NCBI GenBank assembly: GCA_001938485.1
Contig: MQRK01243661.1
Coordinates: forward strand, 1 to 64,000
DNA: 64,000 bases
Source of the DNA: Girardia tigrina
Taxonomy: Eukaryota
Direction of reading: 5' to 3'
Shown here piece by piece: positions 1-64,000 of the stretch. Within the stretch, counting starts at the first letter, position 1. Each line of letters begins with the position of its first letter. The position numbers and the translations under genes were made by a program. The notes under the pieces are model-generated. The model did no database searches. It saw nothing but the letters and a program-made list of their open reading frames with translations, and was not told where the DNA came from.

Positions 1-118
1 TGTAAAACTAAATATTATTTTATTTGAAATTAATGATTTTATTAAAAGAATTATTTAAAAATTTTCCTTTATAAAATTTTATCAAAAGTGTTCATGTATT
101 TTTTCAGAACCCTAACAA

Positions 119-214
119 TTTTTCCACATTAAATTCAGATTTTTTCATAATAAATTGATATTTTTCCACATTAAATACAGAATTTTTCATAATAAATTGA
201 TATTTTTTCACATT
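119..214. repeat. 42-bp tandem repeat, ~2.3 copies
   Basis: TTTTTCCACATTAAAT(T/A)CAGA..TTTTCATAATAAATTGATA at 119-160 and 161-202, partial third copy. Confidence 0.85.
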
Positions 215-265
215 TATTTTTCAACAAATAATACTATTATTACGTCAACAATTATTACGTCAGCG

Positions 266-1150
266 TTAGTGAAGCAGGCAGTGAGTGACTTGGGCTTTTA
301 TAATATAGATTCTATTAAGTAATAAACGCAAATGTTGAAAACTAAGATTAAACATTATATCTTGAATATTATATTTTTTCAAAGTTGCATCATCAACTTC
401 TTCTGGTTTAATATTCTCATTTTCTTTAGGGATATTAAAATTATACCTTCTTGAAAAGGAAGATAATGTACCTAAATATGAATTAATTTTTTGTTTTTGA
501 TAAACTAATAATTTTGCTTTTTCACTATAATTGAAAACATAATTAATTTTTAAATTCATATCAGAAATTGGTTTAAAAATTGTTAGAGAATCAATTTTTT
601 CATTTAATTTTTTAATTCCATCTTCACTCTTTTCCACATTCCGATTAATAATATTATTAATATATTCCACATTCATATTAATAATATTATTAATTTTTTT
701 CATATTCTCTTCAATATTATCATAAATATTTTTCTTACCCCTTTCAATAATACGATAAATTCTTTTTTTATCATCATTAATATCATTAATATCATTATTA
801 ATCTTTTTCATATTTTCACTCATTTCATTATATTGTTTCACCATTGAATCAATTGTAAGTTTCAAATTTCTAATACTTTTCTCAACATCTATATTCCCAA
901 TCTCGATTTTATCTTTAACTTTCAGCGAATTCACAGGATCGTTACCCCCTTCATTCACAAATATCTTATCTAACTTTTTATTATTCACCTCTATAGTTTC
1001 ATTTATTTTTTCTGCATTCGCATATCTCTGATCCGATTCTGATAATATTATCCGATTATTTGCTTGAATTTTTTCAAGTATTTTCTCTTCTCGCATTCCT
1101 CCAATTTGCATCACCATTCCCAATTTATTCACAGGAATGTAATTATTCAT
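266..1150 (-). CDS. Polinton hypothetical coiled-coil, Asn/Ile-rich protein (294 aa)
   Basis: Long ORF, CCAAAAAATG start, heptad-like central region with repeated ENMKKIN; no recognised catalytic motif. Confidence 0.7.
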   Translation of the reverse strand: MNNYIPVNKLGMVMQIGGMREEKILEKIQANNRIILSESDQRYANAEKINETIEVNNKKLDKIFVNEGGNDPVNSLKVKDKIEIGNIDVEKSIRNLKLTIDSMVKQYNEMSENMKKINNDINDINDDKKRIYRIIERGKKNIYDNIEENMKKINNIINMNVEYINNIINRNVEKSEDGIKKLNEKIDSLTIFKPISDMNLKINYVFNYSEKAKLLVYQKQKINSYLGTLSSFSRRYNFNIPKENENIKPEEVDDATLKKYNIQDIMFNLSFQHLRLLLNRIYIIKAQVTHCLLH

Positions 1151-1260
1151 TTTTTGGAATGATTTTGTTTTTGAAGAAAAAAAATCATTCCTATTTTATA
1201 AAATTACAATAACGTCGGCTGTACCGAGTTTCTATAAAAAGGGCCTCTTCGAGGCCACCT

Positions 1261-1839
1261 TTATAGAAGCGATTCCGGCCATAAACAATCTAATATTTCC
1301 TCAATTATATCATCGAATTTATGCGCCAATTGATTCTTCGAATAATTAGCGCATTTATTCTCTTTATTCCAACATTCACACTGATTCATTTTAAATAAAA
1401 AATATAAACTCAATTGTCCACATAGTCGTGTTCCGAAGGGTTGTACTTGTACAGAATTATATATACATTTTGGAAAATCTACTAAAGGCTCTATTCCATA
1501 TGGATCAAAATAGTAAGATACTGGCTCCTTCGTCCCATTATCTTTCTTTAAAGATACTGATTTCTCAAATTCTTTATCTCCATTAAAATATCCCACCCAA
1601 TGACTCCCCTGCTCATCTGAATCCTGGTAATTTATTATTGATAATTTTTTCTGATTTATTTTCGCATCCACTTCATCCGCCATCAAGACTTGTATTTCAA
1701 TTTTCAATTTTCGTCCCCAATCTTCCAACTGTTTATTCGTCGATGTATCAACACCAAACATTTGCATTATATCTTGTAAGTTGTAAAATTCGATCATTTT
1801 TGAGTAGAATTTGTTTTCGTAGAAAAAAATTCTACTCAT
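1261..1839 (-). CDS. Adenain/Ulp1-fold cysteine maturation protease
   Basis: IINYQDSDEQGSHWV (His), YFDPYG (Asp), QVQPFGTRLCG (Gln, Cys); likelier start is the AAAAATG at 1797. Confidence 0.9.
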   Translation of the reverse strand: MSRIFFYENKFYSKMIEFYNLQDIMQMFGVDTSTNKQLEDWGRKLKIEIQVLMADEVDAKINQKKLSIINYQDSDEQGSHWVGYFNGDKEFEKSVSLKKDNGTKEPVSYYFDPYGIEPLVDFPKCIYNSVQVQPFGTRLCGQLSLYFLFKMNQCECWNKENKCANYSKNQLAHKFDDIIEEILDCLWPESLL

Positions 1840-2028
1840 TAATTGATTTTATTCAAAATCAATTAATAAAACATTCACGAGGCTTCGCTGAGCTATCAAA
1901 GTCATTTTTATGACTTGTTAGAATTTTACACCTTCGGTATCCAAATTCTATCCTTTTTGAGTAGAATTTTTTTCTACTAAAACGAGTAGAATTTTTTTTC
2001 TATGAAAACAAATTCTACTCAATTCTAC

Positions 2029-2892
2029 TCATTTTTCCATTATTTGTCTCAGTCTCAAACATAAATTAATTCGCTCATTTCGGAAATCAATTAATCGTCC
2101 TTTGTTGTCAATAATTCTCATAGTAAAATCATTTATCTGATAAATGTATACTGGATAATAAGTTACAAAAGCGGGACGCTCTAAAATCTTATACCCGATT
2201 CCAACTGAAAAAGCAGGAAACGAATAAATCACATTGGAATTCCGCACACTTTCAATAATACTCTTATTTTCCACTTCATTTTCACTTGAAACGTATCCCC
2301 CATTAGCAATATTACAATCGATATTACAAATATTTATATCAGTTATCTGAAAAGTATATTTCGATTCAAAATTTTCCATTGGTCCTGTTAAGAGAATATT
2401 TTCCACATCAAAGAAATAGTTGAATTTGGATTTTTCGAATCCATGCATTGAGTGTAGAATCGATTGATTAGTGAATTCAATGGAATAATTATCCAGGATC
2501 TTGATTCGGGATTTTGATGTTTTCTCATCTGTCNNNNNNNNNNNNNNNNNNNNNNNNNNNNNNNNNNNNNNNNNNNNNNNNNNNNNNNNNNNNNNNNNNN
2601 NNNNNNNNNNNNNNNNTTTTGTATAAAAATAAGCATCATTGTTTTCTCCCCGAATAAGCGAATTCCTAATTCCCTTGATTTCCTTTGGTAAATCTTTTCC
2701 TTTATGTAGAATAATAAAAGAATTGTTTTCCGAAGTGACATTTGCAACAGTATTATAGGTCGAGAACCAGACCAATCCGATTTCGTATTTGTATCGCGGA
2801 TCCAAATTCAACTGAACAGGCAGCTTAACCTTGATTTCTGATTTCGAAGCCGATATTGTAAACGTCGTAGAAAATCCACTAGTCTCGCTCAT
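2029..2892 (-). CDS. Minor capsid protein (penton, single jelly roll)
   Basis: YEIGLVWFSTYNTVANVT..NNSF, NIDCNIANGGY, IYSF, C-terminal IIDNKGRLIDFRNERINLCLRLR typical of Polinton pentons; spans an N-run. Confidence 0.85.
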   Translation of the reverse strand: MSETSGFSTTFTISASKSEIKVKLPVQLNLDPRYKYEIGLVWFSTYNTVANVTSENNSFIILHKGKDLPKEIKGIRNSLIRGENNDAYFYTKXXXXXXXXXXXXXXXXXXXXXXXXXXXXTDEKTSKSRIKILDNYSIEFTNQSILHSMHGFEKSKFNYFFDVENILLTGPMENFESKYTFQITDINICNIDCNIANGGYVSSENEVENKSIIESVRNSNVIYSFPAFSVGIGYKILERPAFVTYYPVYIYQINDFTMRIIDNKGRLIDFRNERINLCLRLRQIMEK

Positions 2893-4099
2893 TTTTGAGA
2901 AAATTTTTTTTCTATGAAAACTTTTTTCAATAATTCCTCCTGTTTTTCTTTTGATAATAATTTTTTTCGTCTTAATTTCTTCATAATATTCAAAATATTA
3001 TCATCCACACCATCATATGACCAGCCTTCTTTGCAGCGATATATTTATACAAATACGAAAACATTGAAATCGGGTCTGAGGGTATTCCCTGTCCTTTTTG
3101 TGATCGTAACCGTGGTAATGATGATGTTTTTTCATCCGTCTCTTTTTTCAGGAGTCCTACTGGTCCCGCAAATTCTCCTACATTTCCTTCAGCTTTATTT
3201 AAAGCATCAAAACAAAGTTTAGTATAATAAAAACTTCTTTCTCGAGCGTTTATTCCATTATTTAATAGAAATGATAAATACTTATCGAATGATGTATGTT
3301 TTTCTTCCATAGTATATTTCTTTTCGAAAATAATTTCATAATTCCCAATTAGGAAATTATTGAAAATCTCATCAAGCTCTACCCGAACCCGATTATCATT
3401 TCTCACGAAATAATATTTTCCACCCTCATTCACGAGAATATATGTATATTTATTGAATGTCATAAATTGTTTTCCCTCAATATTCTTTCCAAACGTTGGA
3501 CGCAACATCGGAGAAGATCCGAAATTTTCATAATATTTTGTCTCAAAGAATATTTCCAAAAATGGAGCAGGTTGCAATAATTGAGGTTCGAATTTCGTTC
3601 CCAATTTCTGTGCCAACTGTTCCAAGAATTTTTTCGAAACCTCATGATGAGTGGTGATAAATTCCTTATCTTGTGGATATTTTTCAGTCATTTCCTGCAT
3701 TATTGGTGCTAATTCCTGTTGGATGAGTAAATATTCCTGTTGGTATTGATCAAAAAACGATTTGGATTTCACATTATCATAATTCTTAATATCGACCTCA
3801 ATAAAACGTTTCAAATCATTTTCCAATTTAACGACTTTGGTTTTTAGAGCTGAGATTCTGTCTGTGATGGGGCCTTGTAATCCAGTCATTAAAGGTTGAA
3901 ACATTTTCGACATTGACGTTTGAAAATCGGATATACCGCTTTTATATTCCAATTCTTGGCGATTGTATTCATGGATTGCTAGTGAGGATTGAATCAAACT
4001 TTTTCGTAAATAATCAAAATATTTTTGATGTTCATTTAAAGGTTGTGAATCTTTGAATACTCGATTTTCTAATAGTGTTCTCATTTTTAAAGCAAACAT
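2889..4099 (-). pseudogene. Polinton conserved protein with 1-nt frameshift near C-terminus
   Basis: 369-aa ORF ends IPSDPISMFSYLYKYIAAKKAGH; after a shift near 3016 it continues DGVDDNILNIMKKLRRKKLLSKEKQEELLKKVFIEKKFSQK*. This matches the recurrent Polinton PSDP..L..L.A.K.AGN helical motif; the stop overlaps the penton ATG (ATGA). Confidence 0.7.
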
Positions 4100-4770
4100 T
4101 TAAATCTGATTCTGATTATTCGGATCCCAAGGTTCCAAATATAATCCCTTTCCCATGAAATGATATTTCAATTTCCCTCCCAATTTTTTATTTTTATTCA
4201 ATAGAGCCTTTTTCGATTTCGGATCTTTATCCGATTGATTTATTTGTTCACGAAAAAATTTCTGAATTCCTTTACCAACATAATCATCCAAGTATAATCC
4301 TTCTCCGAGATCTGTATCTTTTATTCCCAATTCCGATAATATTCCTTTTCCTTTCGATTTCCGTAATCCCGATCCCGTTGGTGCTGTGGCAGGTGGAACC
4401 GCTGGTGTATTCATTTTATCAAGTTCCTTTTGTTTTATTTGTTTTTCAATATCTATTTTCTCTTTTTCAGCCTGAATCTTCTGTGCTTCACGAGAATTCG
4501 CAACAGTTTTTGATACTCCAGCGGCTACTCCAGCGGCTGCTCCTCCTACTGTGAAAAGAGTAGTTAAACCGGCGATTATAGCGGGGATAAACGGTAAAAT
4601 TCCTCCGCTGTGATAATATCCTCCGATCTCTCCTCCATTTTTTCTAAATCTTTAATCTTTTTCAACATTTCCCGATTCAAATAGAATTCCTTCCCATTCA
4701 CTCGAATCAAACCGGGAGTTTGAGTATCTATCAATTTTCGTATTTTTAACGCATCTGTTTTCGGAGCCAT
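4100..4770 (-). pseudogene. Adenovirus pX-like virion core/membrane-active protein, split by one frameshift
   Basis: ORFs 4576-4770 and 4100-4414 join if one A is added to the A6 run at 4638-4643: NGGEIGGYYHSGGILPFIPAIIAGLTTLFTVGGAAAGVAAGVSKTV...GEGLYL...GKGLYLEPW. Confidence 0.8.
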
Positions 4771-4812
4771 TTTTAGAGCAAATTTTGTTTTCCAAGAAAA
4801 AAAATCGTATCT

Positions 4813-6243
4813 TTATTTCTTATCCACGGTTCCTTTGAATGGTTCGATTATCGTGATTTGGGATCCGCGTAGAGACATTTTTATTTTTGCTTCTTCCAAA
4901 ATTACACAATACATTTTCGTTTGAAACTTTTCAGATTTCCGAATGAGAAGTGTAACGGTAACGTTGTTAACATGCAAAGTTTTATCGATATCACTAGTAT
5001 CAAAACACATTATCGGGTATAAACTTTTCCAATCTTTCAACGATAGCATTGGAGCTTTATCTTGGAAACCGCGGGAACATTGAACATATGAATTATATAA
5101 ATCATAGAAATTCNNNNNNNNNNNNNNNNNNNNNNNNNNNNNNNNNNNNNNNNNNNNNNNNNNNNNNNNNNNNNNNNNNNNNNNNNNNNNNNNNNNNNNN
5201 NNNNNNNNNNNNNNNNNNNNNNNNTAATTTGAATCTTGTAATTTCATTCCCACGAAAATATATCTTGGTAAATAATTTAGATATGCAACATTCCAGGAGA
5301 AAACTTTCTCGGTTTTCAAAGAATACTCTACGGATATGCGTTTGAGGAAATCCACATAAATCGGTTTGTCTTTAACATTTAATCGTTCTACCAATCGAGC
5401 ATAATAATCGATATTCAATTCCAATTGATTCATATGCAGTTCCAGGGAATTTATCGTTAATTTTCCTTTGGTTCCTTTTTCTGAATAAAAAATACTTTTA
5501 TCATCAAGTTTTCGCACCATTGTNNNNNNNNNNNNNNNNNNNNNNNNNNNNNNNNNNNNNNNNNNNNNNNNNNNNNAGAGATGTTTCAGTGAGAAAGCAC
5601 CTCTGAATCTATTTTTCTTAAACTGATCTTTCCGAATTTCAAATCCAATATTTTGGTATCGAAGACCCGCTGGAACTTCTTTGGAATTAGCGGCGCCTCC
5701 GCTCGAACCGGGAGTTTCTTCTTCATCTTCAAGAATTTTTGTACTCGTAGATGCGCTTAAGGTTGCGGATGATGCCGCAGCTATTTTCTCTCCATATGTC
5801 ATTTCATAATGATCTGGAATAAAATCAGTTATTTCTCCGCATGGTAAATAGTTTCTATCTTTAGACACATATAATAACATATCCGAAACAACTCCAGGAT
5901 TATTTATCGATTCAACAACATAGTTACCTAATTTCAAAGACATGCATGAAAATAATTTAGGGAAGAAGTTGGTCTCCAAAACACAGTCACTGTCTTCAAT
6001 TTTAATATCATAAACCAGTTTAGCGTTACAAATATCTATCGGATCAGTGGTTTGCGATAATTGGTAAACCAGAGTTCCGTTCTGATTCATGTATGCAGCC
6101 GATCCAGATGTTGGCGCCAGTTTTATTATATCAGATTTTTTCAAAACGTGAGTAAATTCCTTATTGTTATCGAGATCTAAGATTCCCAAGGGAATCATCC
6201 CTGTGGTTAATTGATTTATTGGTTTTTCAAAGCTTGTTTCCAT
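4813..6243 (-). CDS. Major capsid protein (double jelly roll, hexon-like)
   Basis: 476 aa; NFFPKLFS..SLKLG...VESINNPG, FSWNV....PRYIFVG, YPIMCFDTS motifs of Polinton MCPs; located between the pX-like and integrase genes; two N-runs. Confidence 0.88.
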   Translation of the reverse strand: METSFEKPINQLTTGMIPLGILDLDNNKEFTHVLKKSDIIKLAPTSGSAAYMNQNGTLVYQLSQTTDPIDICNAKLVYDIKIEDSDCVLETNFFPKLFSCMSLKLGNYVVESINNPGVVSDMLLYVSKDRNYLPCGEITDFIPDHYEMTYGEKIAAASSATLSASTSTKILEDEEETPGSSGGAANSKEVPAGLRYQNIGFEIRKDQFKKNRFRGAFSLKHLXXXXXXXXXXXXXXXXXXTMVRKLDDKSIFYSEKGTKGKLTINSLELHMNQLELNIDYYARLVERLNVKDKPIYVDFLKRISVEYSLKTEKVFSWNVAYLNYLPRYIFVGMKLQDSNXXXXXXXXXXXXXXXXXXXXXXXXXXXXXXXXXXXXXXNFYDLYNSYVQCSRGFQDKAPMLSLKDWKSLYPIMCFDTSDIDKTLHVNNVTVTLLIRKSEKFQTKMYCVILEEAKIKMSLRGSQITIIEPFKGTVDKK

Positions 6244-6285
6244 TTTTAAAATATTAAATTATTTTGTACTTAACAGGTTAGTTCT

Positions 6286-7744
6286 TCAAACTCCTTTGTT
6301 AAGTACGGATTTTGTTCCAATTTTCGTAATCTGTAAATCCGCTTCATAGAACCGACCGAATAATGCACCATCTTTGGATACGCGCTTTGCGCTATCAAAT
6401 ATGGTGCCTTTTTCAGTTGTAGGATTTATCAACTTATAAGTCACTGGATATTCATGATCCAAAACTTTTGAAATTACGTAAATTTCCCTGGTCCATTTCG
6501 GTTCATATCCTTTTTTAAAAGTCTGTAATTTCCGTTCCTGGTTTTTATTACGAGTACCTTCAGGTTTGTCTCCGCTAAATAATTTTGTTTCGAATACCCG
6601 AACTCGATCTCCGACTTTGAATTTTGGTTTAACTTTTTTCTTGGGTAATTTTTGAGGTTTTGGAAGCGGAATCGCATTATTAAACATTACATCGTGCGGT
6701 GATACGCGGATAGAACTATGAATTATATTATTATAATCAGATAATATTTTTTGCATTTCCAGCTCAGTGATAACTTTCTCTCCTTTCTCGGTAAATAGTT
6801 TATAGATTTCAGATTTTAATGTTCTATTAAATCTTTCAATAAAAACAGGTTTTTCCTTTACGAAATACATTTTAATATTATTGGCTTTTAGGAATTTTTT
6901 CTCGAATTCTTTGTTTGTAAACTCAGCTCCTTGATCAACCCATAAATATTTTGGAATTGGTAATTCGGTATTTCCTAATTCCGTTTAGATTGAAATGAAA
7001 GCTTGGATTATTGATTCAGATTTTTTATTGGGAAGAAAACGGAAAAAACCATACCGGGAATAAATATCTATAACTTTTAAGATATAATATTTCCAAATTT
7101 TTCTGGTTTGTCCTGATTTTGTTATTGTTGTCGCAACGACTCCATTTTCAGTATCTTCTTTAGCGTCAACAGTTATCAAGTCTGCAGACCAAATCCGATT
7201 CAATGATTTAACATTTATGCGGAGAAAGTCTTTATTTCTTTTATGTTCTTTATGTAATTCTTTAGCTAATTGTTTATTATTTTTATCATCAATGGTACCG
7301 CCAAATGCAATTTTACCTTTCATAATTGTTTTTATAAGAAATCTTTCGAATTTTTGTCGCAAAGACAGATCTTGAAGTTGATTAATATCGTGAATAAGAT
7401 TTACATCAGCCAAGTGTCGATCTCGTAAATCTTCAGATCTGTAAGCGATATCATGTTTATAACAGGCTTGATCTAATCCGTCTACTGGTTTATTATCTTC
7501 GCCGATTGGTTGATCTTGGTCGTCTAATCGGATATCCAATCTTGTTAGTGGACCGCAATAATTTTTTCCTGGCAAATGCAGTTCACCGTATTTCGTTTTC
7601 ATAAATCCAGGAATATATTTTGCAAAATTTCCCATAGATTGTTGAACCTTTGGATACGCGCTTCGCGCTATCAAAGACGCCTCCACCTCCGATTGCTCTT
7701 CGAGAATCGAAGTCTCCTCCACCTTCTTTTTTAATAATCATCAT
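6286..7744 (-). pseudogene. Parvovirus VP1u-like PLA2 fused to retroviral-type (rve) DDE integrase; one premature stop
   Basis: HLPGKNYCGP and DQACYKHDIAY (PLA2); IWSADL (D), LWVDQGAEF (D), IERFNRTLK (E), KFKVGDRVR..FKKGYEPKWT. ORFs 6985-7722 and 6286-6870 are in the same frame, separated only by TAA at 6985-6987. Confidence 0.92.
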
Positions 7745-7870
7745 TTTTGGAAGTAATTTATTTTTTAAAAATCAAATGTACTTCTTAATAAAAATTTCCA
7801 ATACTATCAAGCTATTTCTGTAGACATGATATTAAAGGAAGACGGTTAGTAAAGAATAATAATATTTTTT

Positions 7871-8815
7871 TTACTCGCTTTCATCAATTTCAAGATCTGA
7901 GTGCATGTTCGGATTTTCGATTGTTATTTCTTCTTCAGTAAATATATTTTTATAAATTTTTTTCTCAGTGCGATCAAAATAAATATAATTATATTTTTTA
8001 CGCTTCCAGTGATGAATGATTTCCCGCTGATATTCATTAATATTTTCGCTATTGGGTAAGAGATTAGAGAAGATATAAGATTTATCTCTTTTTCCTAATT
8101 CGAAAAAAATGAATCCAGTGGAATTATTCCGGATAGAATGTTTATCCAATCCGTAGAAAGTTTGGGAAATGTATATCGTATTACAGTTATTATGACGTCC
8201 TCTGGTGAAATACGATTTCATTATTTTCTGATCTGACAGATTCACCACGTCATCGAAAATAATGAGATTTTTTACATCTTTCGGTAATGAGTCGCAAGCG
8301 ACGATTTGATTAGGATCCGAAGAAAATAGGACGGATATTGACTTTTCAGGATCTCTAATTAAATATTTTGATTTATCAATATTATTTTTATTATTAATAA
8401 ATCTTTTATACGCATAAACGAGATATTCCGGAGGAGGAATATAATCTTTATCAGAATTATTTCCTAATTCCTCTTTTATCATGGATAATAACATATTTTG
8501 TTTATCAAAGATATCGCGTATTCCGGATTTGGTGAGAGATGATCCGTCTTCAAAACGGAAACCACTTGCAATCACCTTCAATTCCGGTTGATCAATAGTT
8601 GTGGAATAAAATATTAGATTGTTGAAATCTAAAAAATTATCCTCCAATAACATTTTTGCTAGTAAAAAATTTTTACCACATCCCGATTCACCAACGATTA
8701 GTAATCGAAAGTTCTTTGGGAACAATTTATTCTTGAATTTTGACTCATACATTGTTAAAATATTCAGTTTTTCCTTCATTTTTAAGTTGGAAAAGTATTT
8801 TCCAAGCTTAAACAT
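7871..8815 (-). CDS. Genome-packaging ATPase (A32/FtsK-HerA family)
   Basis: Walker A GESGCGKN, Walker B LIIFDD, YFTRGRHNN, YISQ; likelier start is the AAAAATG at 8779. Confidence 0.92.
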   Translation of the reverse strand: MFKLGKYFSNLKMKEKLNILTMYESKFKNKLFPKNFRLLIVGESGCGKNFLLAKMLLEDNFLDFNNLIFYSTTIDQPELKVIASGFRFEDGSSLTKSGIRDIFDKQNMLLSMIKEELGNNSDKDYIPPPEYLVYAYKRFINNKNNIDKSKYLIRDPEKSISVLFSSDPNQIVACDSLPKDVKNLIIFDDVVNLSDQKIMKSYFTRGRHNNCNTIYISQTFYGLDKHSIRNNSTGFIFFELGKRDKSYIFSNLLPNSENINEYQREIIHHWKRKKYNYIYFDRTEKKIYKNIFTEEEITIENPNMHSDLEIDESE

Positions 8816-8907
8816 ACGGAGGCTTCGCCGACCCTTTAGGCATTTTTTAATTTTTTCGAATTTTAGTGAAAAAATTTTGAAAATTTTTCAAATTGTTTTT
8901 AAAGAAA

Positions 8908-9420
8908 ATGAATGAGTCGAAAAAAAATTTGTTAATAAATAAATGTTTAGATTGTGATTTTTTAAAATCGCGATACAATTATGAAAAAGATAGATATATT
9001 ATAGATATATCATTTTATGAAAAAAAGACAGAAGAATATAAATTATTAGCATTTCAATTTCAAACAATGCTAAAAGATAAAAATGAATCATCTGATTTTT
9101 CTAATGAAAAAATATTAAAATTAGAGGAAAAGAATAGGAAATTAGAAAATACTATAAAACTTCTAAAAGAAGAAAATTATAATCTTAATGCGAGATTAAT
9201 GCAAAAAGAAAAAATTGAAGATGAAAATACAATTTTAAAAGATCTTAAAGAACATAATTTAGAAGAAAAAATTTCTTCTTGGGAAATAAATGATGATAAA
9301 TCTTCTTCTATTAATGAAATTACCGAATCTATAACATCTTCAAAAAGAAATGGAAATTATAAAGGAAGAGCAAAAGGACAAACTAATTTAAAAACAAGAC
9401 AAAAAGAAAATAAGATTTAA
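8908..9420 (+). CDS. Polinton accessory coiled-coil protein
   Basis: ORF with AAAGAAAATG start, divergent from ATPase; CLDC and a leucine-heptad segment. Confidence 0.6.
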   Translation: MNESKKNLLINKCLDCDFLKSRYNYEKDRYIIDISFYEKKTEEYKLLAFQFQTMLKDKNESSDFSNEKILKLEEKNRKLENTIKLLKEENYNLNARLMQKEKIEDENTILKDLKEHNLEEKISSWEINDDKSSSINEITESITSSKRNGNYKGRAKGQTNLKTRQKENKI

Positions 9421-9460
9421 TTGGATTTTGGATTTGGATTTGGATTTGGATTTGGATTTG
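9421..9460. repeat. (GGATTT)n hexamer array
   Basis: About 6 copies, intergenic. Confidence 0.9.
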
Positions 9461-9493
9461 AGAATTTATAAATTCTATTATATTTTAAAGAAA

Positions 9494-9789
9494 ATGAATA
9501 AAAATAATTTAAAATATGAAAATCAATACGATATTAATAAAATAGGTATACGAATAACAAAAGAAAAGATTATAAAAGATAATGAAATAAAGATTGGAGT
9601 ATATAAAAATGCTATAATAAATTTTAATTATTTTATTAACAAGAATGAAAAAAATACCCTAACTGGAAATTAATTAAAGATAAAAAGAAAGATAGAGAAA
9701 TGTTAAAAAATAAGATTATTGATCTTGAAAATGAAACCAATGAAATAAGAGAAAAATGTAATGATAATAATATTGATGATTTTATTTAA
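9494..9789 (+). pseudogene. Small Polinton accessory protein, frameshifted in A7 run
   Basis: AAAGAAAATG at 9494; adding one A at 9648-9654 gives continuation YPNWKLIKDKKKDREMLKNKIIDLENETNEIREKCNDNNIDDFI*. Confidence 0.5.
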
Positions 9790-9952
9790 AAAATAATTTT
9801 AATTTCTTATACAAATTGATTTTTTTTATTGAAAAATAAAAAATTATCCATTTGAATATTGAAATTAGTATGTCACTATCGTATAGATAGGGATTTATTA
9901 CAAATGGATAGAGTAAAACTACCGCGTTTTTTCTGGTTCATTTTGAATTGGA

Positions 9953-10438
9953 TTAAACTGGTTTGGATTGAATTTTATCACTGATGGCAATTTCACTACA
10001 AATCTCGTTATCAATTATTAAAGAATGGTAACATTCTCTTAATAATGAGGCATAACGCATATTTTTATTGGTGGAGATTTTTTTATGACTATTTTCCTTT
10101 ATTGATTTTAATTCATCATAAAATTCTCCAGCTTTATTTTCATCATATTTCCCGATTTCGGAAATAGTTTTATCTAACATTACTGCTAAGTCTTCATTTT
10201 CTTGTTTTAATCCTTCGATTTCATCTAAATCATTACATCGTTTCAATAATTGATCCTCAAGCATTAAATTTATTCCGTTTACCATATAATTCAGTTTAAC
10301 ATTATCAACAACGATTTTTTCTCCTTCAACAGCTTTTGTAGTTATATTCAATTGATTAAACTTCTTTAATGCTCTCGAAGAAGCATCTCTAAAATCCTTT
10401 TTCTTTTTCATCTCTTTTTTATAAATTTCAAGATCCAT
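9953..10438 (-). CDS. Polinton accessory helical protein (161 aa)
   Basis: ORF with AAAAATG start; no recognised motif. Confidence 0.6.
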   Translation of the reverse strand: MDLEIYKKEMKKKKDFRDASSRALKKFNQLNITTKAVEGEKIVVDNVKLNYMVNGINLMLEDQLLKRCNDLDEIEGLKQENEDLAVMLDKTISEIGKYDENKAGEFYDELKSIKENSHKKISTNKNMRYASLLRECYHSLIIDNEICSEIAISDKIQSKPV

Positions 10439-10470
10439 TTTTTATTTAATTAAAATAAGATTTAATCTTT

Positions 10471-10965
10471 TCAACTTAAACCAATAGCGAGAAGTTCTTC
10501 TTTAAACTTTTCTACTCTCGATGATTTATTCTGTTTTAAAGTTCTTAAGGATTCGGATTCATATTCGGATTCAACAACATCGAGTTTTCCTTTTCCAATT
10601 TCAACTTCTTTTTTCGATTTCGGTTTTGATTTTGATTTCGGTTTCGATTTCGATTCCGATTCCACTATCTCTTGAATTTTCTTTTTATTTTTCGTTTTAA
10701 GACGATTATCATATCTATTCAAAGATGGAATATTCAATTCTTGTAAAGCTCTTGAAAATTTGTATGGTGTAGAACCAATTTTTTTACAGATATCTTTATG
10801 TTTAAGACCAGTATTCATATTTTTCTCATAATCCTCCATCCATTTATAATATCTTTGATATCTCAGAAAAAATGCATTAGCTCGTACATCTTCTTTAATG
10901 AGATTTAAATCCAAATCCTCAAGTTTTTTTATATTATCATAATCAAGCGAATTTTTTTTACTCAT
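10471..10965 (-). CDS. Putative helix-turn-helix DNA-binding protein with SK/PK-rich basic tail
   Basis: LKHKDICKKIGSTPYKFSRALQELNI has HTH-like spacing; ESESKSKPKSKSKPKSKK encoded by hexamer repeats. Confidence 0.55.
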   Translation of the reverse strand: MSKKNSLDYDNIKKLEDLDLNLIKEDVRANAFFLRYQRYYKWMEDYEKNMNTGLKHKDICKKIGSTPYKFSRALQELNIPSLNRYDNRLKTKNKKKIQEIVESESKSKPKSKSKPKSKKEVEIGKGKLDVVESEYESESLRTLKQNKSSRVEKFKEELLAIGLS

Positions 10966-11687
10966 TTTTTCTTTAAAATAAAATGGTTTGTAAAATTTTT
11001 TATGAAAGTGGGGGAGATTTGTTAGAAATATACATAGATTCTTTTTTTCCTCATAAAAATCATATAAAATATTCTAAATTTTGAAATAAACTAGTGCAAA
11101 ATAGGGTAAAATCGATGAATTTTTCGATTTTAAGAATATTGTATGTAGTATTTTTTTATGCAAAATGTTCATTAACATTTTTTAATTAAAATCCCAAACA
11201 AAAAGTTAGCAAAAATATTCATATTAACCATTAAAAATTAAAATATATACATTTTTTAAAATATATTACTTATTAATTTATCAGTAATTAATGTTGATTT
11301 TTTTAGATATTTCATTTTTATGTGATTATATTTCANNNNNNNNNNNNNNNNNNNNNNNNNNNNNNNNNNNNNNNNNNNNNNNNNNNNNNNNNNNNNNNAT
11401 CAATTTTATTTTTAATAATTAATAAAAAACGGTATGTAAATAGATACATTAAAACTTATAACATAATATCATGCACCTAAGGTATTAGGCGCTATTTATA
11501 ATGAGAGCAACTCTCCAGTAGTTCAATACATTATTTAATGGGCTGCAGACCTGTTATCTTAATGCTATTGCTGCGCGTTGATAATATAATATTCTGGGAG
11601 ATTCTAGATAATCTCAGAATATTAGAAAAATCGACAGTCAGTTGCTCTTGGAACCGGTTCCTAAAAACGGCCGAGATCTCAAAACAA

Positions 11688-12116
11688 CATCCAAATCAAA
11701 TCAAATCAAATCAGATGGAATCAAATCAAATTCAAATCAAATCCAAATCCAAAATCCAAATCCAAAAAGAAAAAAAACAAAAAAAACAAAAAAAAGAAAA
11801 AAACAAAAAAAATCGATTTTTCTGAATTTTTATAGTGTTTTATCGATAAAATATTCGATTACTCATTTTTGTTATAAATAATATAACATTTTTTATATCA
11901 ATCAGCCATACTACGGTATGGCTTTTTGGTATCCATTTTTTTTCTTCGAGTTCTCATTTTTGATATAAATAATATAACATTTTGAATTTTATTAGTGTTT
12001 TATCGATAAAATAGCTATTTTATCGATAAAATATTTGATTTTTATATAACTTCGAAAAAGGTGCGAAAAACGTTATTTTTGAAGGGTTTAGGGTATACCC
12101 ACGAAACTATATTACT
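11688..12116. repeat. Candidate Polinton terminal (TIR) region: CAAAT/CCAAAT arrays, A-rich tract, direct repeats and palindromes
   Basis: (CAAAT)n ~11692-11765; TATCGATA at 11841, 12001, 12021; perfect 34-bp palindrome 11998-12031; hairpin AGCCATAC-TACG-GTATGGCT at ~11904-11923. Confidence 0.6.
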
Positions 12117-13155
12117 GGTGGGTCCAGCGATTTGTGAAAATTTGTTACACGTGGGATGAACCGGTCGAAAATTCCGATTTTTTGCTTTAAGTATTAAATG
12201 AATACTCCCTTATTTCTTAATATTTTGTTTAAACGATTTTATTTTTGTATTGTTAATAACGTTTTGAATAACTTTTTTTTACTTTTTATTTGAAATGGAA
12301 AATAATAATTATATGAAAATCTACCCAGTTAGCAAAGTAAAAGAAACATAATTTGAAATGCATAAACATATAACCATTGTAGGCATCTTATTAACTATTA
12401 TTAATCTAATGAAAAAATAATTAGGATTGAAATTAAATAAATTTAGTTCAATAATTTATACAATACTTTAATCAAAGTTTTTTCATAAGAAAAGTTTAGA
12501 TTATTGGGCTTAAAATGCTGTTTTCTTTTAATTTATTTTCATCATTGTTGATAAAGATAATGTACTGATGAATATTTCTAACCAACGCTTAATATTCACA
12601 TGCAATTAATTTTATAATAATTTTAATAATTGAACAAATAAAAAAATAGTCTTTAGGGTTTATTTTTATTTGACTTTTTAAATGAAATAATATATTAATA
12701 TTTGCTCATAAATGCTAAAAATTCGATTACATTAAATAAATTTAATAGTGAATCTTTAATTCAACTTAAAAGTTTTCATTTGATATTATGCTTGACTAAA
12801 TCGATCGGGAGTAGAAAGACACAAAAGGTTAAGTACATTTTTTAAACAAAAAACTTTTGTAGTAAATTTTTCTTCACTTTGTTACGGAGATGGGGCTAAA
12901 ACTGTAGGAAATATGTGAAGCAATACATAATTTTTCAACTGCTTCTTACAAATGAAATAATTTTATAAAATTTTACACTATTATAAAAAAAATCCGTTTA
13001 TTTAACAAAATTTAGATCATTATTTAAATACAAATCAAATCAAAATTAACATAAAAAATTAAATAATGATCCAAATCTTTTAATGCACCAAATAATAATA
13101 ATATCGAGAAAACAATTTAAAAACATGTTTTTTGAATTATGTTTTTATTTTTTTA

Positions 13156-13221: not shown

Positions 13222-16200
13222 GTGGAATTCTATCTTTATCGTTAATTTAATTGTCATGGGATTTTTTCAGGATATCAAATCATTTTTAAAAGCGGTCCAA
13301 AGTGAATCTTTTGATAAGAAAAATGGAGAAATGGCAGTCAAATTTTTACGTGCCAAAAAATTTAATATTGATGCAGCTTTAGATTTGTATCAAAGACATG
13401 AAGTAGTTTCGATTAGTTTTTTTTAATAATTATTTTCAATCATGTCTCTTTATTTATCTATTAAGACAATTCGAACAAAAGAAAATCTTTTCGAAATCAA
13501 TCCATTTGATAAAGATATTCTTAATGAGTTAATGTCCCAAAAGTTTACATTTTTAGTACGATTATTATTGAAATATTTGGTGCAAATTTAGCGTGACGTA
13601 TGCTAACATGATATTAGTTAAAATTAATTAATTATCAAACTGTAATCTGTGAAAGAAACTACCTTAAAGGGTTTCCACTTTTAAATGTGATTTTTTTTCA
13701 TTTTGAAGTGTGAATATTTCCACTTTGAAGTGTGAAAACTTTATAAATAAATTTACTACTGATATATTGAAAATAATTTAATAAATATAGGCTTGTTTCA
13801 CGGGCTGACTGAAACAATTTCATCTTTGTTGATGAAGTTGGCTTCAATATAAGCATGCGCTGCCGATATGGAAGAAGTGAGCGTGGTCATGCAGCAATTC
13901 AGCGCCTTCAAAATATCAGAAGTAGAAATATTTCCGTTTGTTGTGGACTGCTTAAGACCAGTGTGCTGTACTATAAAAGGCAAAATCGTGCTTTCAATAC
14001 TGAAACCTTTCTAGAATTTATTGATGATACCGTAGCTAAACTGGCCGAAATGAATATGAGTAATGTGATGTTTATTATAGACAATGTCGCATTCCATAAG
14101 TTCCACCTTGTTGCAGAAAAAGTAACAGCTTCCGGGCATACCATTCATTTTTTGCCACCCTACTCCCCATTTTTGAATCCTATCGAGAACATGTTTTCTG
14201 AGGTAAACCAGTGTATTAGAGTTGCCCGCCCTCATAATGAAGAGCAGTTATTCACCAGTATCGACTCCTCTTTTAATGCAGTTGTATCAAATAGCTGTGA
14301 AAATTACTATCGGCACATGCTATCTTTTATTCCGAAATGTTTGAACAGAGAAATAATTGATGATGAAAATTATAATTAAATCATTACATGAAAGTGTTTT
14401 TTATTTAACAATTTTTTTACATGTTTTCATATAACTTTTTCATCTTTTTAATTTTCACACTTCAAAATGAAAAAAATCACATTTAAAAGTTGAAACCCTG
14501 TATATTGTATGTTCCAGATTTCTACAACCTTTACTAACTAGTCAGATAATAATAATTTCTAAATTTTATTCATGTTATTTTTCCACTAAGAAAATATATT
14601 TTCAGTATGATTAAACTGGTGAATTTAGTATAAAAATTGACAAATAAATGGCGTTTCCTGAAAAATTTATTATTCAAAAGCATATGCTTATTATTCACTT
14701 TGCCAAACAACTGCAACACTTATTGTTGAAATAATAGTAAGACATTTGTTCTTACAATGGTGACAACAAATCTTAAAATGTAAATATAAATAAGATTTAA
14801 TTGTTCTATAATCGATGATTCATTATAAAATTACTGTAATTCACGAAATCTAGATTTATATATATTGATCATTTGTTATAATGATTCCCGATTTAAAAAT
14901 GGAGATTTACTTCTGTTTTTATGTGACAAAAATATCGAATGTATGAGTCTTCAGATTAAAAAATAAAAAAACATTAAACTTTCTGATAGACGATGCACTA
15001 ATTTTGTACCAAATAAATTATATGTTTACTTATTTAACATTTTAGACCGATATCGATAGTAAATCAGGTGCATCTATTTGTATTTTTACTGCCAGACTTC
15101 ATCATCCTTCGAAAGCTTCACACCAACACGTTCTGAAAGCTCTCATATTTCAATTAGATGCAATCATTTTATTGTATGATTCGTTATTTTTGTAAAATTT
15201 AAATAAATTTCATTGAAGGCCGTCTACTCAAAAAAATGGATTGATATTTATCTATAATATGACCGGCTCACTGTATTCCAATTTTGACATGACTCTTAGT
15301 GTTAAAATTCTCAATTTATTAAAAGTAAGATTAAAGATTAATTAATTGTCAAAATAAAATTATATAACATATCAGTAAAGGTTTTAATAGAAGTTTTCTT
15401 TAATAAATAAATGAACGAAGAAAAGACATAAATGTTACTCATCATATTTTTAAACCTTTAAGTTAATTTAAGGCCTGATTACAGAAATTAAAAACACTAC
15501 CAATGATTATCTTGTTTTAAAATGATAAATTGTCTTTAAATGAACATGGAAAACAGCAAATTTGATGTTTTTAATATTTCCATTGGGGATTATGTACTAT
15601 CACTAAAGATTCTAGTTTCGATCTTTTTGTTAATTTTTTTCTAATGCTAGTTCAAAAATTTATTTCACCTTCATCATATGCAAATACACATAAAAACGAA
15701 GTTTGGAATTATTATTAATTTTATTATTCTACATATTTAACCCTTCGTAATTTGGTGTGACACTTCTGTAACAAACCGTTGTAACTCTTACAGGATCTAT
15801 AACTATTAACATATCACATTTTAAATCACTTTTGCATGTCTGTTACACACCGATCAATACAACATCGGTGATTTATTAGTACCTAAAGGTGGCGTTGGTG
15901 GTAGGATGATGAATTTGACAGTTCTCTCTATTGAGTTGCGAAGTTCTATTGAGTTACGAAGGATTAATAAAAAATTGATATTGATATCATTGAAAATAAA
16001 TACCGTATTTTTTTCTGAAAATTCCTTTATCCGGAAAAGCTAGGTGACAAAGAACTAAGTTTTCTTGTAAATAAACGTCCAGAGCTTATAAACGTAAAAT
16101 GTTACTGAAAGTAATTGTGCAAATATATTCGCGGTATTACATCATTGTACTCTAATCGGACATGAAACTTAGTAAAAAAATTACATTTTCCTAACGTGAA

Positions 16201-38582: not shown

Positions 38583-41500
38583 ACATATTTTGGGATTTTA
38601 TGTTAATTTTAAGAGTATTCTGTATATTGCATGCGTATTATAAGAAAAAGAATAAAAGGAAATTAAAAAAAAGAAAATTAGTCATAAATATTACCACCTT
38701 TTGAGGTAGTAAACACCGATAAGAATATTTGCAAAATCTTTGAAAATTATATAAGTTGTAATACTTATGTAAAAACTGGATCAAAACTTTTTTTCTCTTA
38801 ATTTTGTTATGATTCTGAAAAAAATATATAAAATTTGAAAAAAATTATAGAAAAGTTTAAAATAATTTTACAAAGAAAATATTAGAGTTTGGATCAATAT
38901 TTGTATTAACAAAAATCAGCTTAATATTTTATAATATTCTATGATTTCTTTTACTCAACTAATTTAATAAATAAAAAAAACTATGTAAGCAAGCAAAAAA
39001 TAAGTACCAGAGCACAATTAATTCTCGAAAAAGAAATCTTTGAATATTGAAATTAGTTATGGAGCGTTAAAATTAAATTTAATCTTTCCATATTATTTCT
39101 TTCGAAACCTTTGTTAAAAAAGGCTTTGCTCGATCTCCCTATTTTTCTCAAATACAACTTAAAACTACTTTTACCGAAAAATTCTTCAAAGATTTACGTT
39201 ATTTGTGATGTGAATAATGCTTTAAAAAGTCTTTTATGTTAATGATCTAGAGCAAAGTTAAACTAGAATAAATCAGTATCAGAATTTAATTAAAAAGTAT
39301 TAAAGATTCTAACAAATTATGTTTTTCTCTTAACGTTAATTATTAATTAACAATTTTTTAATTGTCAAACAATTGATTTTACTGTAGATATAAAAATATT
39401 GTCTGATTATCCTTTTTTATCATTTTGTATTCATTAAGGCGCTGAAAAAATATTTTTAAAGTATAAACCAAAATAATTTTTTCAAAATATTATAAAGAAG
39501 AAATCTGTGAATTTTATTTTGTAATGCTTAATAGATTTTTGTCACGTTCACGATTTTCAGTTTCATTTATTGCTTTTATTAAACAATTATTAAAATATTT
39601 AATAAGAATTTTATATACTTTTAGGGAGCTTATCCTGCTAGATTGTGTAAAGTCATTATTTTCACTCCTCCTCTGTGGTTTCGGGCAGCGTTTAATTTTT
39701 TACGTTTGTTCGTGAAGGATAAACTCCAAGACCGAGTGTGGATTTTAACCAAGAATGAAGATTTACATTGTCATTTAACAAAAGAAATTTTACCAATTAG
39801 TCTTGGTGGTTGTAAAAATCATAGTCATAAATCTTGGCTTAGAAAAGCCTTTAATTCACTTGGTTATTCGTACGAAATACTCGATCAGAAAATGAATAAC
39901 ATCAGATACAATAATGATTTACTGGTATCTTTCTTTTCAAATGTTTATTATTATTAAATTTTCTTTAATTACTCTAAAATAAGTTTTCAGTATTTTATAT
40001 TTCGGAAAAATATTTAAAACTTTGATGGAAAAAAGTTCTAATTTATATACCTGAATTTATGTGTGAAACATAAACTGTTACCATTGATTCGTTATGAACC
40101 TGTAGAAAAAAAAAGATAGCAGAATTGAATGACATTATGGTTCATTAATAAGGAGTTCATGGCCTCAATAATATTTATTTTATTTAGTTCTGACGATGTT
40201 TATTTTAACATTTATATGAACATCATAAATTAAATTAAAGAATTAATGTTTCTTCTAAATACCGGTTTTTTAGAACATTCTTGTTATTTCTTTTCAATGT
40301 TTTTTTATAATGTCTAAGATACTCAAATGATAAGAAACCAATTATAAAATGTTCTTTTATATTTAAAGCATTTTTGATGAAATAAAATTATTTTTTAATG
40401 TCCTAATCAATTTTGACATTAAGAACATTTAGCTCTTTGAAAAATACCGTAATGGCAATGAATTCAGGTGTACTCGAGTTTCGAAAATTTCAATCTACTC
40501 TTAATTTAGATAACTGTATCGAGACCCCTTCTTCATGCTTCAGTCATTTTGCATTATAAATTTCAGACTTATTTTTAAAAAAAAAACTTACACCACATCA
40601 TTTTTCTATTTACATTGACTTCTATAGCTCAAGCCTTAATACTGAAAAATAAGTACTTAAATAATGTATGACATGTGTATTTATTTATATCATTTAACCA
40701 TAAATTTTATAGAAAAATAAAATTTTTTAAAATCTATTTTATTAAATCTTTAAAATGATAAACAAATATATAATACATACACAATTATTACATATTGTAT
40801 AAAATAAATAATTTTAAGATTCGTACTTTTACTTATAAAAGTCAGTAACAAATAGGCATTCCAGTCTATTTTGCTTTATTATTAAAGGATTATTATCATT
40901 TGAATTTTAAATGAACCAGGAAAATGTTTAAACTTTTTGACAAAAGCATTTACTCATTTAGTATCGCAGATATACAATATATATTGAATTTAATAAAGTT
41001 AAAGTTGAATCTAATATGAATACCCAACAATTTTATATGATATTATATATCACTATGGTTTCAAAAAGGCTCATATCACTGTTAGGTAGTATAATAGGTG
41101 ACTAAAAGTAGATAGTTCCCTGTCGAAGTAAAATATACAAAGGTTTTCGCTCATGTTGCTTGGTAGTTAGTACAAGGAGATTTATGCCTTTGTGGAATAA
41201 AGATTTGAAAAGTGAAATGAATTTCTTTTAACTTTTTTTAGAATTATTAAAACTAATCTTTATTTGAATTTATTAGATTATAAACATAAGTATCGTCTGA
41301 ATCTTTAAGTATCTAAAAACTAATATGTTTATTGAACACCGTTCTACTGAACTTTATGTTCATGGTATTTTACAATTGGTATTTTTAGCTGAATTTTTAC
41401 GTCACTCTAAGTTTATTAAAGTACAAGTAGATTGTAAACATTGTACAATCAGTAAGTTTGAAAGTTAAAAAAAAGATTTATCGAGAGGAGATTTCAAAAA

Positions 41501-62713: not shown

Positions 62714-64000
62714 CTTCTTTTTGACCTTAGCCGTTGGGCCGTGGGTGCAATTATAAACAAGGTACAATTATAAACAAGCCTTCGCCACATCTTTCTACTT
62801 ATAGCTTCTTTTCTCAGAAATTCCATACTGAGTCCAGTCCATTATTTTAAATCGTCCATCCATTGCCTCTTTGATCTTCCTCTTGGACTTTCTCCTTCCA
62901 CTCTTCCCTCAATCATAACCTTTGCTAATGCTTGTTTTCTTATTTGATGACCGTAAAATTTCAGCTTCCTTCTCTTGATGATCTCTTCTATTGATTCCGG
63001 TCTTTTACCTAGTATTTCTGTCATTCTCCTCCAAACAAAGTCATTTATCTTCTTTTCTTTCCACATGATCTTCAGCATTCTCCTGTAGCACTTCATTTCA
63101 AAAGCTTTAAGCCTATTCATACTCTTTTGATTTATTGCCCAACTCTCGCATCCATAGAGGAGTGCCCAGACAACAGCCTTAGTGATCTTCAATCTGCTCT
63201 TGAGATGGATTTCTTTGAGGTTAAAAACTGTGATAAGCTTAATCATTGCGCTTGTTGATATACCAATCCGGCTTCTGATTTCTTCTGCGCTTCCCCCATT
63301 CTCTGTGATAGTAGAGCCTAAATATTTGAAACTCCTTACTGGTTCCAGCTTCTCCCCTTCAATGAAAATCTCCAGTTTAACCTCGTTGTTATGGTTTCCT
63401 GAAACCATTACTTTGCTTTTTTGTCTGTTGATTTCCATTCCGAAATTGTTTGACGCTTTGTGTAATCTGTTCGCGAGTTCCTGAATCTCTGCCTCATCTT
63501 TGCCGATTAGGTCTATGTCCTCAGCAAATCGTAGGTTGGTTATTCTTGTTCCTCCGCAGCTTATTCCAACATCGTCTAGATCTTCTATTGCTTCCATAAC
63601 AATTCTCTCAAGAAAAAGGTTGAACAGTGTTGGTGAAAGAATGCAACCTTGTCTTACTCTTACTGATGATTTAAACCAGTCGCTAAATTGCTCACTTGTC
63701 AACACTTTTATCTTTGCATCTTCGTAAAGGCTCTTAATAATATTCGTGATATGTTTTCCTATGTTGTGTTTATTTATTGTGTGCCATAATGCTTTGTGCT
63801 ACACCCTGTCAAAAGCTTCTTTGAAATCTATAAAGTTATGACATTATTCGTTTGTGGTCTCTTGTTTTCTCACAAATTAGTCTTAAGTTGGTTATCTGCT
63901 CCGTAGTGCTGCGGTCTCTTCTGAAGCCTGCCTGCATCTTACTAAGAACTTGCTCCACTTTCGGTGTGATTCTTCTTTGTAAGACTTTCAGCATAACCTT
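62713..64000 (-). mobile_element. RTE-like non-LTR retrotransposon, 3' part, inactivated
   Basis: QAGFR, NFIDFKEAFDRV, VRQGCILSPTLFN, LRFAED (FADD mutated), FKYLGS, LLYGCESW, EGRVEGESPRGRSKRQWMDDL. Confidence 0.92.

Follow-up and report, generated by a model that had tools for sequence, protein, structure and literature searches.

A parvovirus-type phospholipase A2 joined in frame to an RVE integrase in a Polinton-like element of Girardia tigrina, and the recurrence of this architecture among its relatives

The alpha adintoviruses (group 2 Maverick-Polintons) are described as carrying a PLA2X gene, in which a phospholipase A2 (PLA2) leads into a pX-like tail (Starrett et al. 2021, PMC8502044). 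Near one end of the first 64,000 nucleotides of Girardia tigrina contig MQRK01243661.1 (positions 1 to 64,000, hereafter the window), a PLA2 appears to run straight into an integrase instead. The locus raises the question of whether this joined frame is an accident of one decayed copy or an architecture kept by a virus lineage, and, if the latter, what such a chain might do.

The gene lies in a Polinton-like endogenous element (Table 1), which has the RVE integrase, the A32/FtsK packaging ATPase, and the adenain-like protease of that group. Element ORFs extend down to position 266, and the element probably runs on before window position 1. Neither a long PolB ORF nor a PolB motif was found within the window, and the PolB gene may lie in that preceding part. 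Positions 1-13000 were searched for paired long inverted repeats and yielded none; the one candidate for an end of the element is a stretch at 11820-12031 that is rich in repeats and palindromic, with a perfect 34-nt palindrome at 11998-12031. The major capsid ORF contains runs of N. ORF 2029-2892, for which neither Pfam nor PHROGs returned a match, is one that we take to be a probable minor capsid protein; PHROGs added only transposase matches. Two further ORFs are of unclear role: one of 369 amino acids at 2990-4099 (minus strand), whose end may be frame-shifted, is without library matches, and ORF 266-1195 encodes a coiled-coil-like protein of unknown function, with 21-nt and 33-nt tandem repeats near and inside it (118-222 and 648-846).

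The sequence-only reading of the locus had assumed a protease encoded by the element itself, and an intact-looking gene for one is present at 1261-1797. By itself this ORF has no Pfam match, but it scores 0.96 to ESM Atlas clusters in which 19-62% of the members carry Peptidase_C5, and its His, Asp, Gln, and Cys line up in an alignment with those of the protease-integrase fusions described below.

Several element genes share a motif immediately upstream that ends in AAAA-ATG (1148-1197, 1797-1844, 2889-2919, 4768-4817, and 7742-7791, minus strand). Some copies of the motif are palindromic (1800-1838, 1984-2022), and it may serve as a late promoter or as a signal for translation. Hairpins are not strikingly enriched over the element as a whole (18 in 12.1 kb versus 48 in the other 51.9 kb), and the idea of a general excess was set aside. 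Beyond the element, the window is AT-rich host DNA with host exons, transposases, and a reverse transcriptase; the pairing of CRAL-TRIO with a tyrosine phosphatase is the layout of animal PTPN9.

Table 1. Features of the element and of the surrounding host DNA, in window coordinates.
Feature	Position	Strand	Remarks
Polinton (Maverick/adintovirus)-like endogenous element	first 12 kb of the 64,000-nt window	mostly minus	intronless ORF block
Adenain-like (Ulp1/C5) maturation protease	1261..1797	-	His, Asp, Gln, Cys motifs intact
Minor capsid candidate	2029..2892	-	probable; labelled by position and likeness
pX-like membrane/core protein gene	4100..4770	-	two frames: 64-aa ORF from 4770 and X-like ORF 4100-4651
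Major capsid protein, double jelly roll-like	4813..6243	-	PF21738 E 8.5e-5, 22.3 bits, under cut-off 27
Integrase C-terminal beta domain	6286..6624	-	two in-frame insertions relative to relatives; without chromodomain; TGA stop
27-nt hairpin-forming repeat, copy 1	6373..6399	-	z -4.1
RVE integrase, start helix and catalytic core	6676..7254	-	Pfam rve
In-frame TAA within integrase core	6985..6987	-	same site open in relatives
Linker	7255..7326	-	conserved K-x-K-x-x-x-G-G end of PLA2, candidate protease site, then short acidic/polar spacer
Parvovirus-type PLA2 domain, residues 18-113	7297..7584	-	PF08398
Probable true 5' end of fused gene	7586..7744	-	short frame from element-type ATG 7744, Gly-Gly motifs, out of PLA2 frame
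27-nt hairpin-forming repeat, copy 2	7649..7675	-	one mismatch; z -1.9
A32/FtsK-type packaging ATPase	7871..8887	-	Pox_A32 33.5 bits, cut-off 22.8
Host exon, CRAL-TRIO N	13271-13402	+	
DDE_3	13813-14379		
Host exon, CRAL-TRIO	39625-39954	+	
Mariner-type transposase	47853-48908		
LTR-type integrase piece	54818-55288		
Host exon, tyrosine phosphatase	57210-57605	+	
Reverse transcriptase	62842-63798		

Read on the minus strand, the PLA2-integrase gene forms a single frame from an ATG at 7635 to a TGA at 6286 with one in-frame TAA. When that TAA is read as X, Pfam places Phospholip_A2_4 at residues 18-91 (E 1.6e-9, 38.4 bits, cut-off 23.9) and rve at residues 146-258 (E 2.5e-8, 34.5 bits, cut-off 32.6), and three intact relatives used in tblastn cover 7647 to approximately 6330 in one frame, straight across the TAA. 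The passage of PLA2 in frame into the integrase, the central claim of the sequence-only reading, is thus borne out, and the motifs on which it relied (NYCGP, HDIAY, R..AD, IMKGKIAFGGT, and WVDQG) are all present in frame. The TAA sits between two catalytic Asp residues of the integrase; the codon of the second of these, in WVDQG (6936-6934), lies downstream of the TAA and upstream of the next in-frame ATG (6870), in the gap between the two listed ORFs where it had been placed.

The two ORFs are therefore one gene, with one TAA between 7635 and 6286, but the proposal that this TAA is its only break is doubtful, for there is likely a second near the 5' end. The ATG at 7744, to which the gene had been extended, is outside the PLA2 frame. 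Only 23 of the 239 minus-strand ATGs between 1 and 12000 share its AAAA-ATG context, and a weak copy of the upstream motif accompanies it; both features are missing from the first in-frame ATG (7635). The short frame beginning at 7744 contains a GG-D motif resembling that ahead of the PLA2 in relatives P0002, P0004, P0005, P0007, P0014, and P0058; its BLASTP comparison with P0004 was not significant (E 9). A frame break between the 7744 frame and approximately 7647 is the likely, although not proven, second lesion, and the G. tigrina copy is a pseudogene with, probably, two breaks. Searches by tblastn and blastn found no sister copy within the window. In the window and the database relatives, neither of the results that would have told against the fusion turned up, these being sister copies with PLA2 and integrase in separate genes, or an N-terminal domain lacking a PLA2 fold.

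Of the two copies of a 27-nt hairpin-forming repeat (Table 1), one is part of a 15-residue in-frame insertion in the integrase tail and the other lies in the 5' region of the frame break. None of 100 shuffles gave such matches, and partial arms occur at 1892-1900 and 1937-1945. Short in-frame insertions of a similar kind, with many Gly, Pro, Ala, and Ser residues, are seen in relatives P0003, P0004, P0014, and P0058. The repeats are possibly a small palindromic element spreading in the clade of the fused gene.

The N-terminal domain had been assigned to the PLA2s of parvovirus VP1u, and several lines of evidence uphold the assignment. Besides the PF08398 match, a profile of the PLA2 family finds AAV VP1u at E 1.6e-6, and the expected sites are in place: the Ca-loop YCGPL (7560-7546), the His-Asp dyad (7455-7450), and the second Asp (7407-7405). 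In a predicted model built from a 90-row alignment (pLDDT 89.4), H61, D62, and D77 lie on helices 53-64 and 70-85. The best of 48,161 chains compared with this model is a rice secreted PLA2 (sPLA2), with Z 7.6 (middling, being under 8) and an rmsd of 3.6 over 91 aligned residues; the next is a helical bundle at Z 6.1. Foldseek ranks sPLA2s of plants, bacteria, and fungi among its leading matches, at E values of only 0.2-1.2, and gave no PLA2 match below E 0.001. Among the non-gap rows of 39 fused proteins, the PLA2 His is conserved in 36 of 37, the Asp in 36 of 37, the second Asp in 37 of 37, and the Ca-loop Gly in 33 of 34. The window protein keeps the first Gly of the Ca-loop and has Leu in place of the second, a position at which the 39 fused rows include G (14), L (8), and F (8); the PLA2 of AAV2 has Phe there and is active. 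The window domain thus has the family, the catalytic residues, and the predicted fold of a parvovirus-type PLA2, with putative Ca-dependent phospholipase activity. A zinc finger (U1-like C2H2 or DUF5679) precedes the PLA2, with GG-D between them, in P0002, P0005, P0014, P0029, P0164, P0165, and many of P0168-P0183.

The integrase is complete, as had been claimed. Its triad is D152 (7182-7180), D234 (6936-6934), and E267 (6837-6835); its sequence matches the Ty1, PFV, and MMTV integrases in the PDB, and its fold matches those of PFV and RSV (Foldseek, E 1e-8). The triad is likewise kept across 38 fused rows (D in 36 of 36 non-gap rows, D in 34 of 35, E in 33 of 35), and the retention of both active sites across the fused proteins argues for selection on both. 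Pfam found neither a chromodomain nor an HHCC finger in the window protein, in agreement with the sequence-only reading; chromodomains do occur in five fusions with an N-terminal PLA2 (P0009, P0027, P0029, below cut-off, P0030, and P0078).

In the window, the ORF of the PLA2 does not continue into a pX-like tail. Such a tail is encoded separately: an HMM of 89 PLA2X tails has a single match among the 992 window ORFs, ORF 4103-4651 (E 3.6e-10). This pX-like gene is itself broken, by a frame break and not by an in-frame stop. The PLA2X unit (Starrett et al., PMC8502044) is split in the window element, which shows it to be modular, with a PLA2 and a pX-like tail that can part. Many stand-alone PLA2s have the zinc finger and are without a pX tail.

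Is the joined frame peculiar to this copy? When proteins of 246-786 amino acids were searched with the PLA2 part, five of 34 candidates matched, and all five are open chains with both PF08398 and PF00665. Among proteins under 246 amino acids, 12 of 18 candidates matched: three run into the start of the integrase (P0157, P0058, P0167), five are cut short or shifted, and four appear stand-alone (P0159, P0161, P0164, P0165), which indicates that among close PLA2s the fusion is not obligatory. A HMMER profile search of 1.84 billion representatives returned 39,388 matches, and 33 of the best 150 have both domains, 32 with the PLA2 first and one with it last; the profile is biased toward fusions, and 33 of 150 gives no frequency for Polintons. 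Pfam scans of 53 representatives placed 21 above the PLA2 cut-off with an rve match. In the ESM Atlas, queried with the intact relative P0002, three clusters (184, 111, and 72 members) have PLA2 on 78%, 89%, and 99% of their members, respectively, and rve on 93-100%, at cluster scores (0.81-0.83) that have the standing of leads. These clusters have the same domain order as the window protein and bear automatic labels ([quoted passage not shown] and a form with a chromodomain); where taxa are known, they are mostly Preplasmiviricota. The domain-architecture search that had been suggested for this locus thus finds the PLA2-rve fusion well represented in databases, and not rare. A scan of bacterial and archaeal genomes for relatives gave 48 pattern matches, none of which was confirmed.

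Some representatives depart from this order. In P0087, the arrangement is integrase, chromodomain, PLA2, with a KGDG motif before the PLA2; it is a single cluster and possibly a chimera. P0018, P0051, and P0070 are protease-integrase fusions, the latter two being sisters (support 96) that both have a chromodomain. Together, P0087 and the three protease-integrase fusions show that the joining of integrase to a virion-type protein has happened on more than one occasion.

These comparisons bear on the simplest alternative, that decay or an assembly fault produced the joined frame of this copy by chance, or that its TAA is programmed or reassigned. The element is indeed decayed, with one break and a probable second in the fused gene and one in the pX-like gene, and some database proteins are clear chimeras; several database fusions, such as P0083, P0023, and P0085, may be chimeras of decayed copies. 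The window junction can nevertheless be aligned position for position with those of five independent relatives, and the TAA falls within the integrase core and not at a domain border. Reassignment of TAA as a sense codon was rejected, since TAA terminates eight of the 11 element ORFs and Gln is encoded by 102 CAA/CAG codons; the count of no TAA or TAG inside the 3041 codons of these 11 ORFs is zero by construction. As far as the junction goes, an artefact of the window copy is excluded, and this alternative as a whole is very improbable.

The history of the fusion was approached through trees of the integrase part. The 73 rows of an IQ-TREE analysis were selected from 151 by removing 13 that were truncated or chimeric and then keeping 37 of the 102 remaining unfused rows (15 neighbours of fused rows and 22 chosen at random); five proteins with a short integrase part had been excluded earlier. 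In this tree, the window protein falls within a group of 11 (SH-aLRT 88) that are all fused and only approximately 40-70% identical. Fused proteins are otherwise scattered: starred branches force at least eight changes, a count that does not separate gains from losses, and a single clade of fused proteins is rejected (AU p=0.0008). These topologies indicate more than one gain or loss of the fusion. In a FastTree analysis of 151 integrases, the window protein has a long branch (1.22) and falls among unfused proteins, which we take as a long-branch effect, although it is still a result against the placement above. In a poorly resolved PLA2 tree (109 columns), the window protein joins P0002 and P0004 (support 97) in a group that also holds stand-alone PLA2s.

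Such a scatter, with close PLA2 relatives that occur unfused, could also arise if the fusion were a neutral by-product, in which adjacent PLA2 and integrase genes occasionally lose a stop and the integrase serves intracellular transposition only, with no coupling to the virion. In coral polintoviruses, expression of the integrase is described as clustering apart from that of the capsid genes (PMC11131425), which would fit. However, the all-fused group of 11 and the Atlas clusters that are 78-99% fused point to long retention with both active sites kept, and if the PLA2 is a virion protein, a fused integrase would be made and delivered alongside it whether or not this was selected. We consider a neutral origin and persistence unlikely.

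What joins the two enzymes may be informative about their fate. After the last PLA2 helix, GG or GxG occurs within 10 residues of a conserved Lys in 32 of 38 fused rows, compared with 46 of 7947 background windows (0.6%). Two of the six exceptions (P0015, P0083) look like internal deletions and four (P0022, P0030, P0047, P0067) are apparently whole. The residues of the motif vary among relatives, and the distance from it to the integrase helix ranges from approximately 10 to more than 80 residues, being approximately 10-15 in many. The motif is also present in stand-alone PLA2s that stop a few residues later (P0169-P0171, P0159, P0161) and in PLA2X proteins, and over 90 mostly stand-alone proteins of the PLA2 family the Lys and the first Gly are at least 90% conserved. 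On these alignments, the motif is inherited from the PLA2 family and is not evidence for a linker that evolved for the fusion. It is nonetheless not solely a PLA2 trait, since the three protease-integrase fusions have GG or GxG just ahead of the integrase start helix.

The mavirus protease is reported to cut at GG↓X and GX↓G, and mavirus virions to contain the integrase MV02 and the cleaved hydrolase MV13 (Born et al. 2018, PMC6048507). The Gly-Gly linker of the window protein is consistent with this rule of a related protease, with GG↓T, the bond named in the sequence-only reading, as a candidate for the exact cut. It does not fit the stricter P4 rule of adenain, and neither does the common K-L-G-x-G of its relatives; the window residues are A-F-G-G.

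We consider it probable that the window gene descends, as a pseudogene, from a functional PLA2-integrase fusion of a Polinton (Maverick/adintovirus) lineage, which in active members is a virion-packaged precursor cut at the Gly motif by the adenain-like protease. In such members, the two enzymes would be made as one chain and loaded into the capsid, where the protease would cut at the Gly-Gly or Gly-X-Gly that ends the PLA2, as in mavirus, with a probable further cut at the Gly-Gly-Asp motif ahead of the PLA2. The freed PLA2 would help to breach the endosomal membrane, and the freed integrase would travel with the genome and insert it. Because the motif is the ordinary end of the PLA2 family, fusion is cheap, although cleavage is not thereby proven: we propose that fusions recur because a PLA2 that already ends in a protease site can be joined to the next gene at no cost. 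Against the cleavage of such a precursor, conservation of the Gly motif in stand-alone PLA2s means that it may be structural.

That last point also favors a fusion that works uncut, in which the PLA2 stays attached as a head that targets or breaches membranes and takes the complex of integrase and genome across the endosomal or nuclear envelope membrane; in a stand-alone PLA2, the motif has nothing to release. The short linkers of many relatives, the four whole fusions that lack the motif, and the C-terminal position of the PLA2 behind the chromodomain of P0087 fit an uncut chain as well. The prevalence of the motif in fused rows speaks against it, as do the same kind of junction in the protease-integrase fusions, the KGDG before the PLA2 of P0087, and a variation in linker length that suits a disposable spacer. 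A model of the full-length fusion (pLDDT 58, pTM 0.40, low pLDDT at 112-145) gave no confident packing of PLA2 against integrase, which is weak evidence, as its alignment is shallow; the model says nothing on contact between the domains. An uncut fusion is, in our estimate, quite unlikely.

The cleaved-precursor reading draws on several known systems. Alpha adintoviruses share with the window element a Polinton virion module in which a PLA2 like that of parvovirus VP1u accompanies hexon, FtsK ATPase, adenain, rve integrase, and a pX-like protein. As described in PMC8502044, they differ in that the window PLA2 is joined to the integrase, with the pX-like tail in a separate gene 2.5 kb downstream, past the capsid gene, and in that their integrase has a chromodomain, whereas that of the window does not. 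In mavirus, one particle contains an RVE integrase together with a lipase-type hydrolase and a protease of clan CE that has GG↓X or GX↓G specificity, a grouping that the window element would share; MV02 and MV13 come from separate genes and MV13 has an alpha/beta fold (PMC6048507), whereas the window hydrolase is a PLA2, of unrelated fold, and is fused to the integrase.

The PLA2 of parvoviruses, as in AAV VP1, belongs to the same family, with the same His-Asp dyad, second Asp, and Ca-loop, and is likewise tethered to another virion protein; the partner in the window is an integrase and not a capsid protein, and the second Ca-loop Gly is Leu in the window copy. In the Gag-Pol of retroviruses, the integrase enters the particle within a precursor that is cut by the viral protease. 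The likeness to Gag-Pol, an integrase packaged as part of a protease-cut precursor, holds only under the cleaved-precursor reading. The window element belongs to a DNA virus without Gag, reverse transcriptase, or aspartic protease, its cysteine protease would act in trans, and homology is confined to the integrase core.

Full-text literature searches gave no description of a PLA2-integrase fusion; an earlier mention is possible, for instance in Repbase, in subscription journals, or in the largely pictorial map figure of PMC8502044. In the portions available of PMC8502044, PMC5803895, PMC4642659, PMC3671162, PMC6048507, PMC11161782, and PMC11131425, PLA2 or PLA2X and integrase are separate genes or PLA2 is not treated, and the same applies to corresponding portions of five preprints (10.64898/2026.06.19.733378, 10.1101/2023.08.22.554363, 10.64898/2026.10.13.758929, 10.64898/2026.07.28.741253, 10.1101/2025.02.07.637071). 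Parvoviruses, mavirus, and retroviruses already provide the parts and their logic, databases annotate the architecture automatically, and the window copy is a pseudogene. The fusion is a real, conserved, and recurrent architecture in a known virus group, and one that has apparently gone undescribed.

Particle formation by animal Polintons, and the presence of integrase in their particles, are still argued mainly on the basis of gene content. Recurrent precursors that join integrase to a PLA2 (or to a protease) would give the uncharacterised protease of Polintons a defined substrate and would allow a prediction to be made for proteomics of virions. More tentatively, and with a little less than an even chance of being right, we suggest that animal Polintons have repeatedly made the integrase a passenger of protease-cut virion precursors, with a PLA2 at either end or with the maturation protease, as a DNA-virus counterpart of Gag-Pol. 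If true, the fusion would be genetic evidence for the delivery of integrase inside Polinton particles and for integration right after entry, and the membrane-breaching enzyme and the integrase would be loaded one to one.
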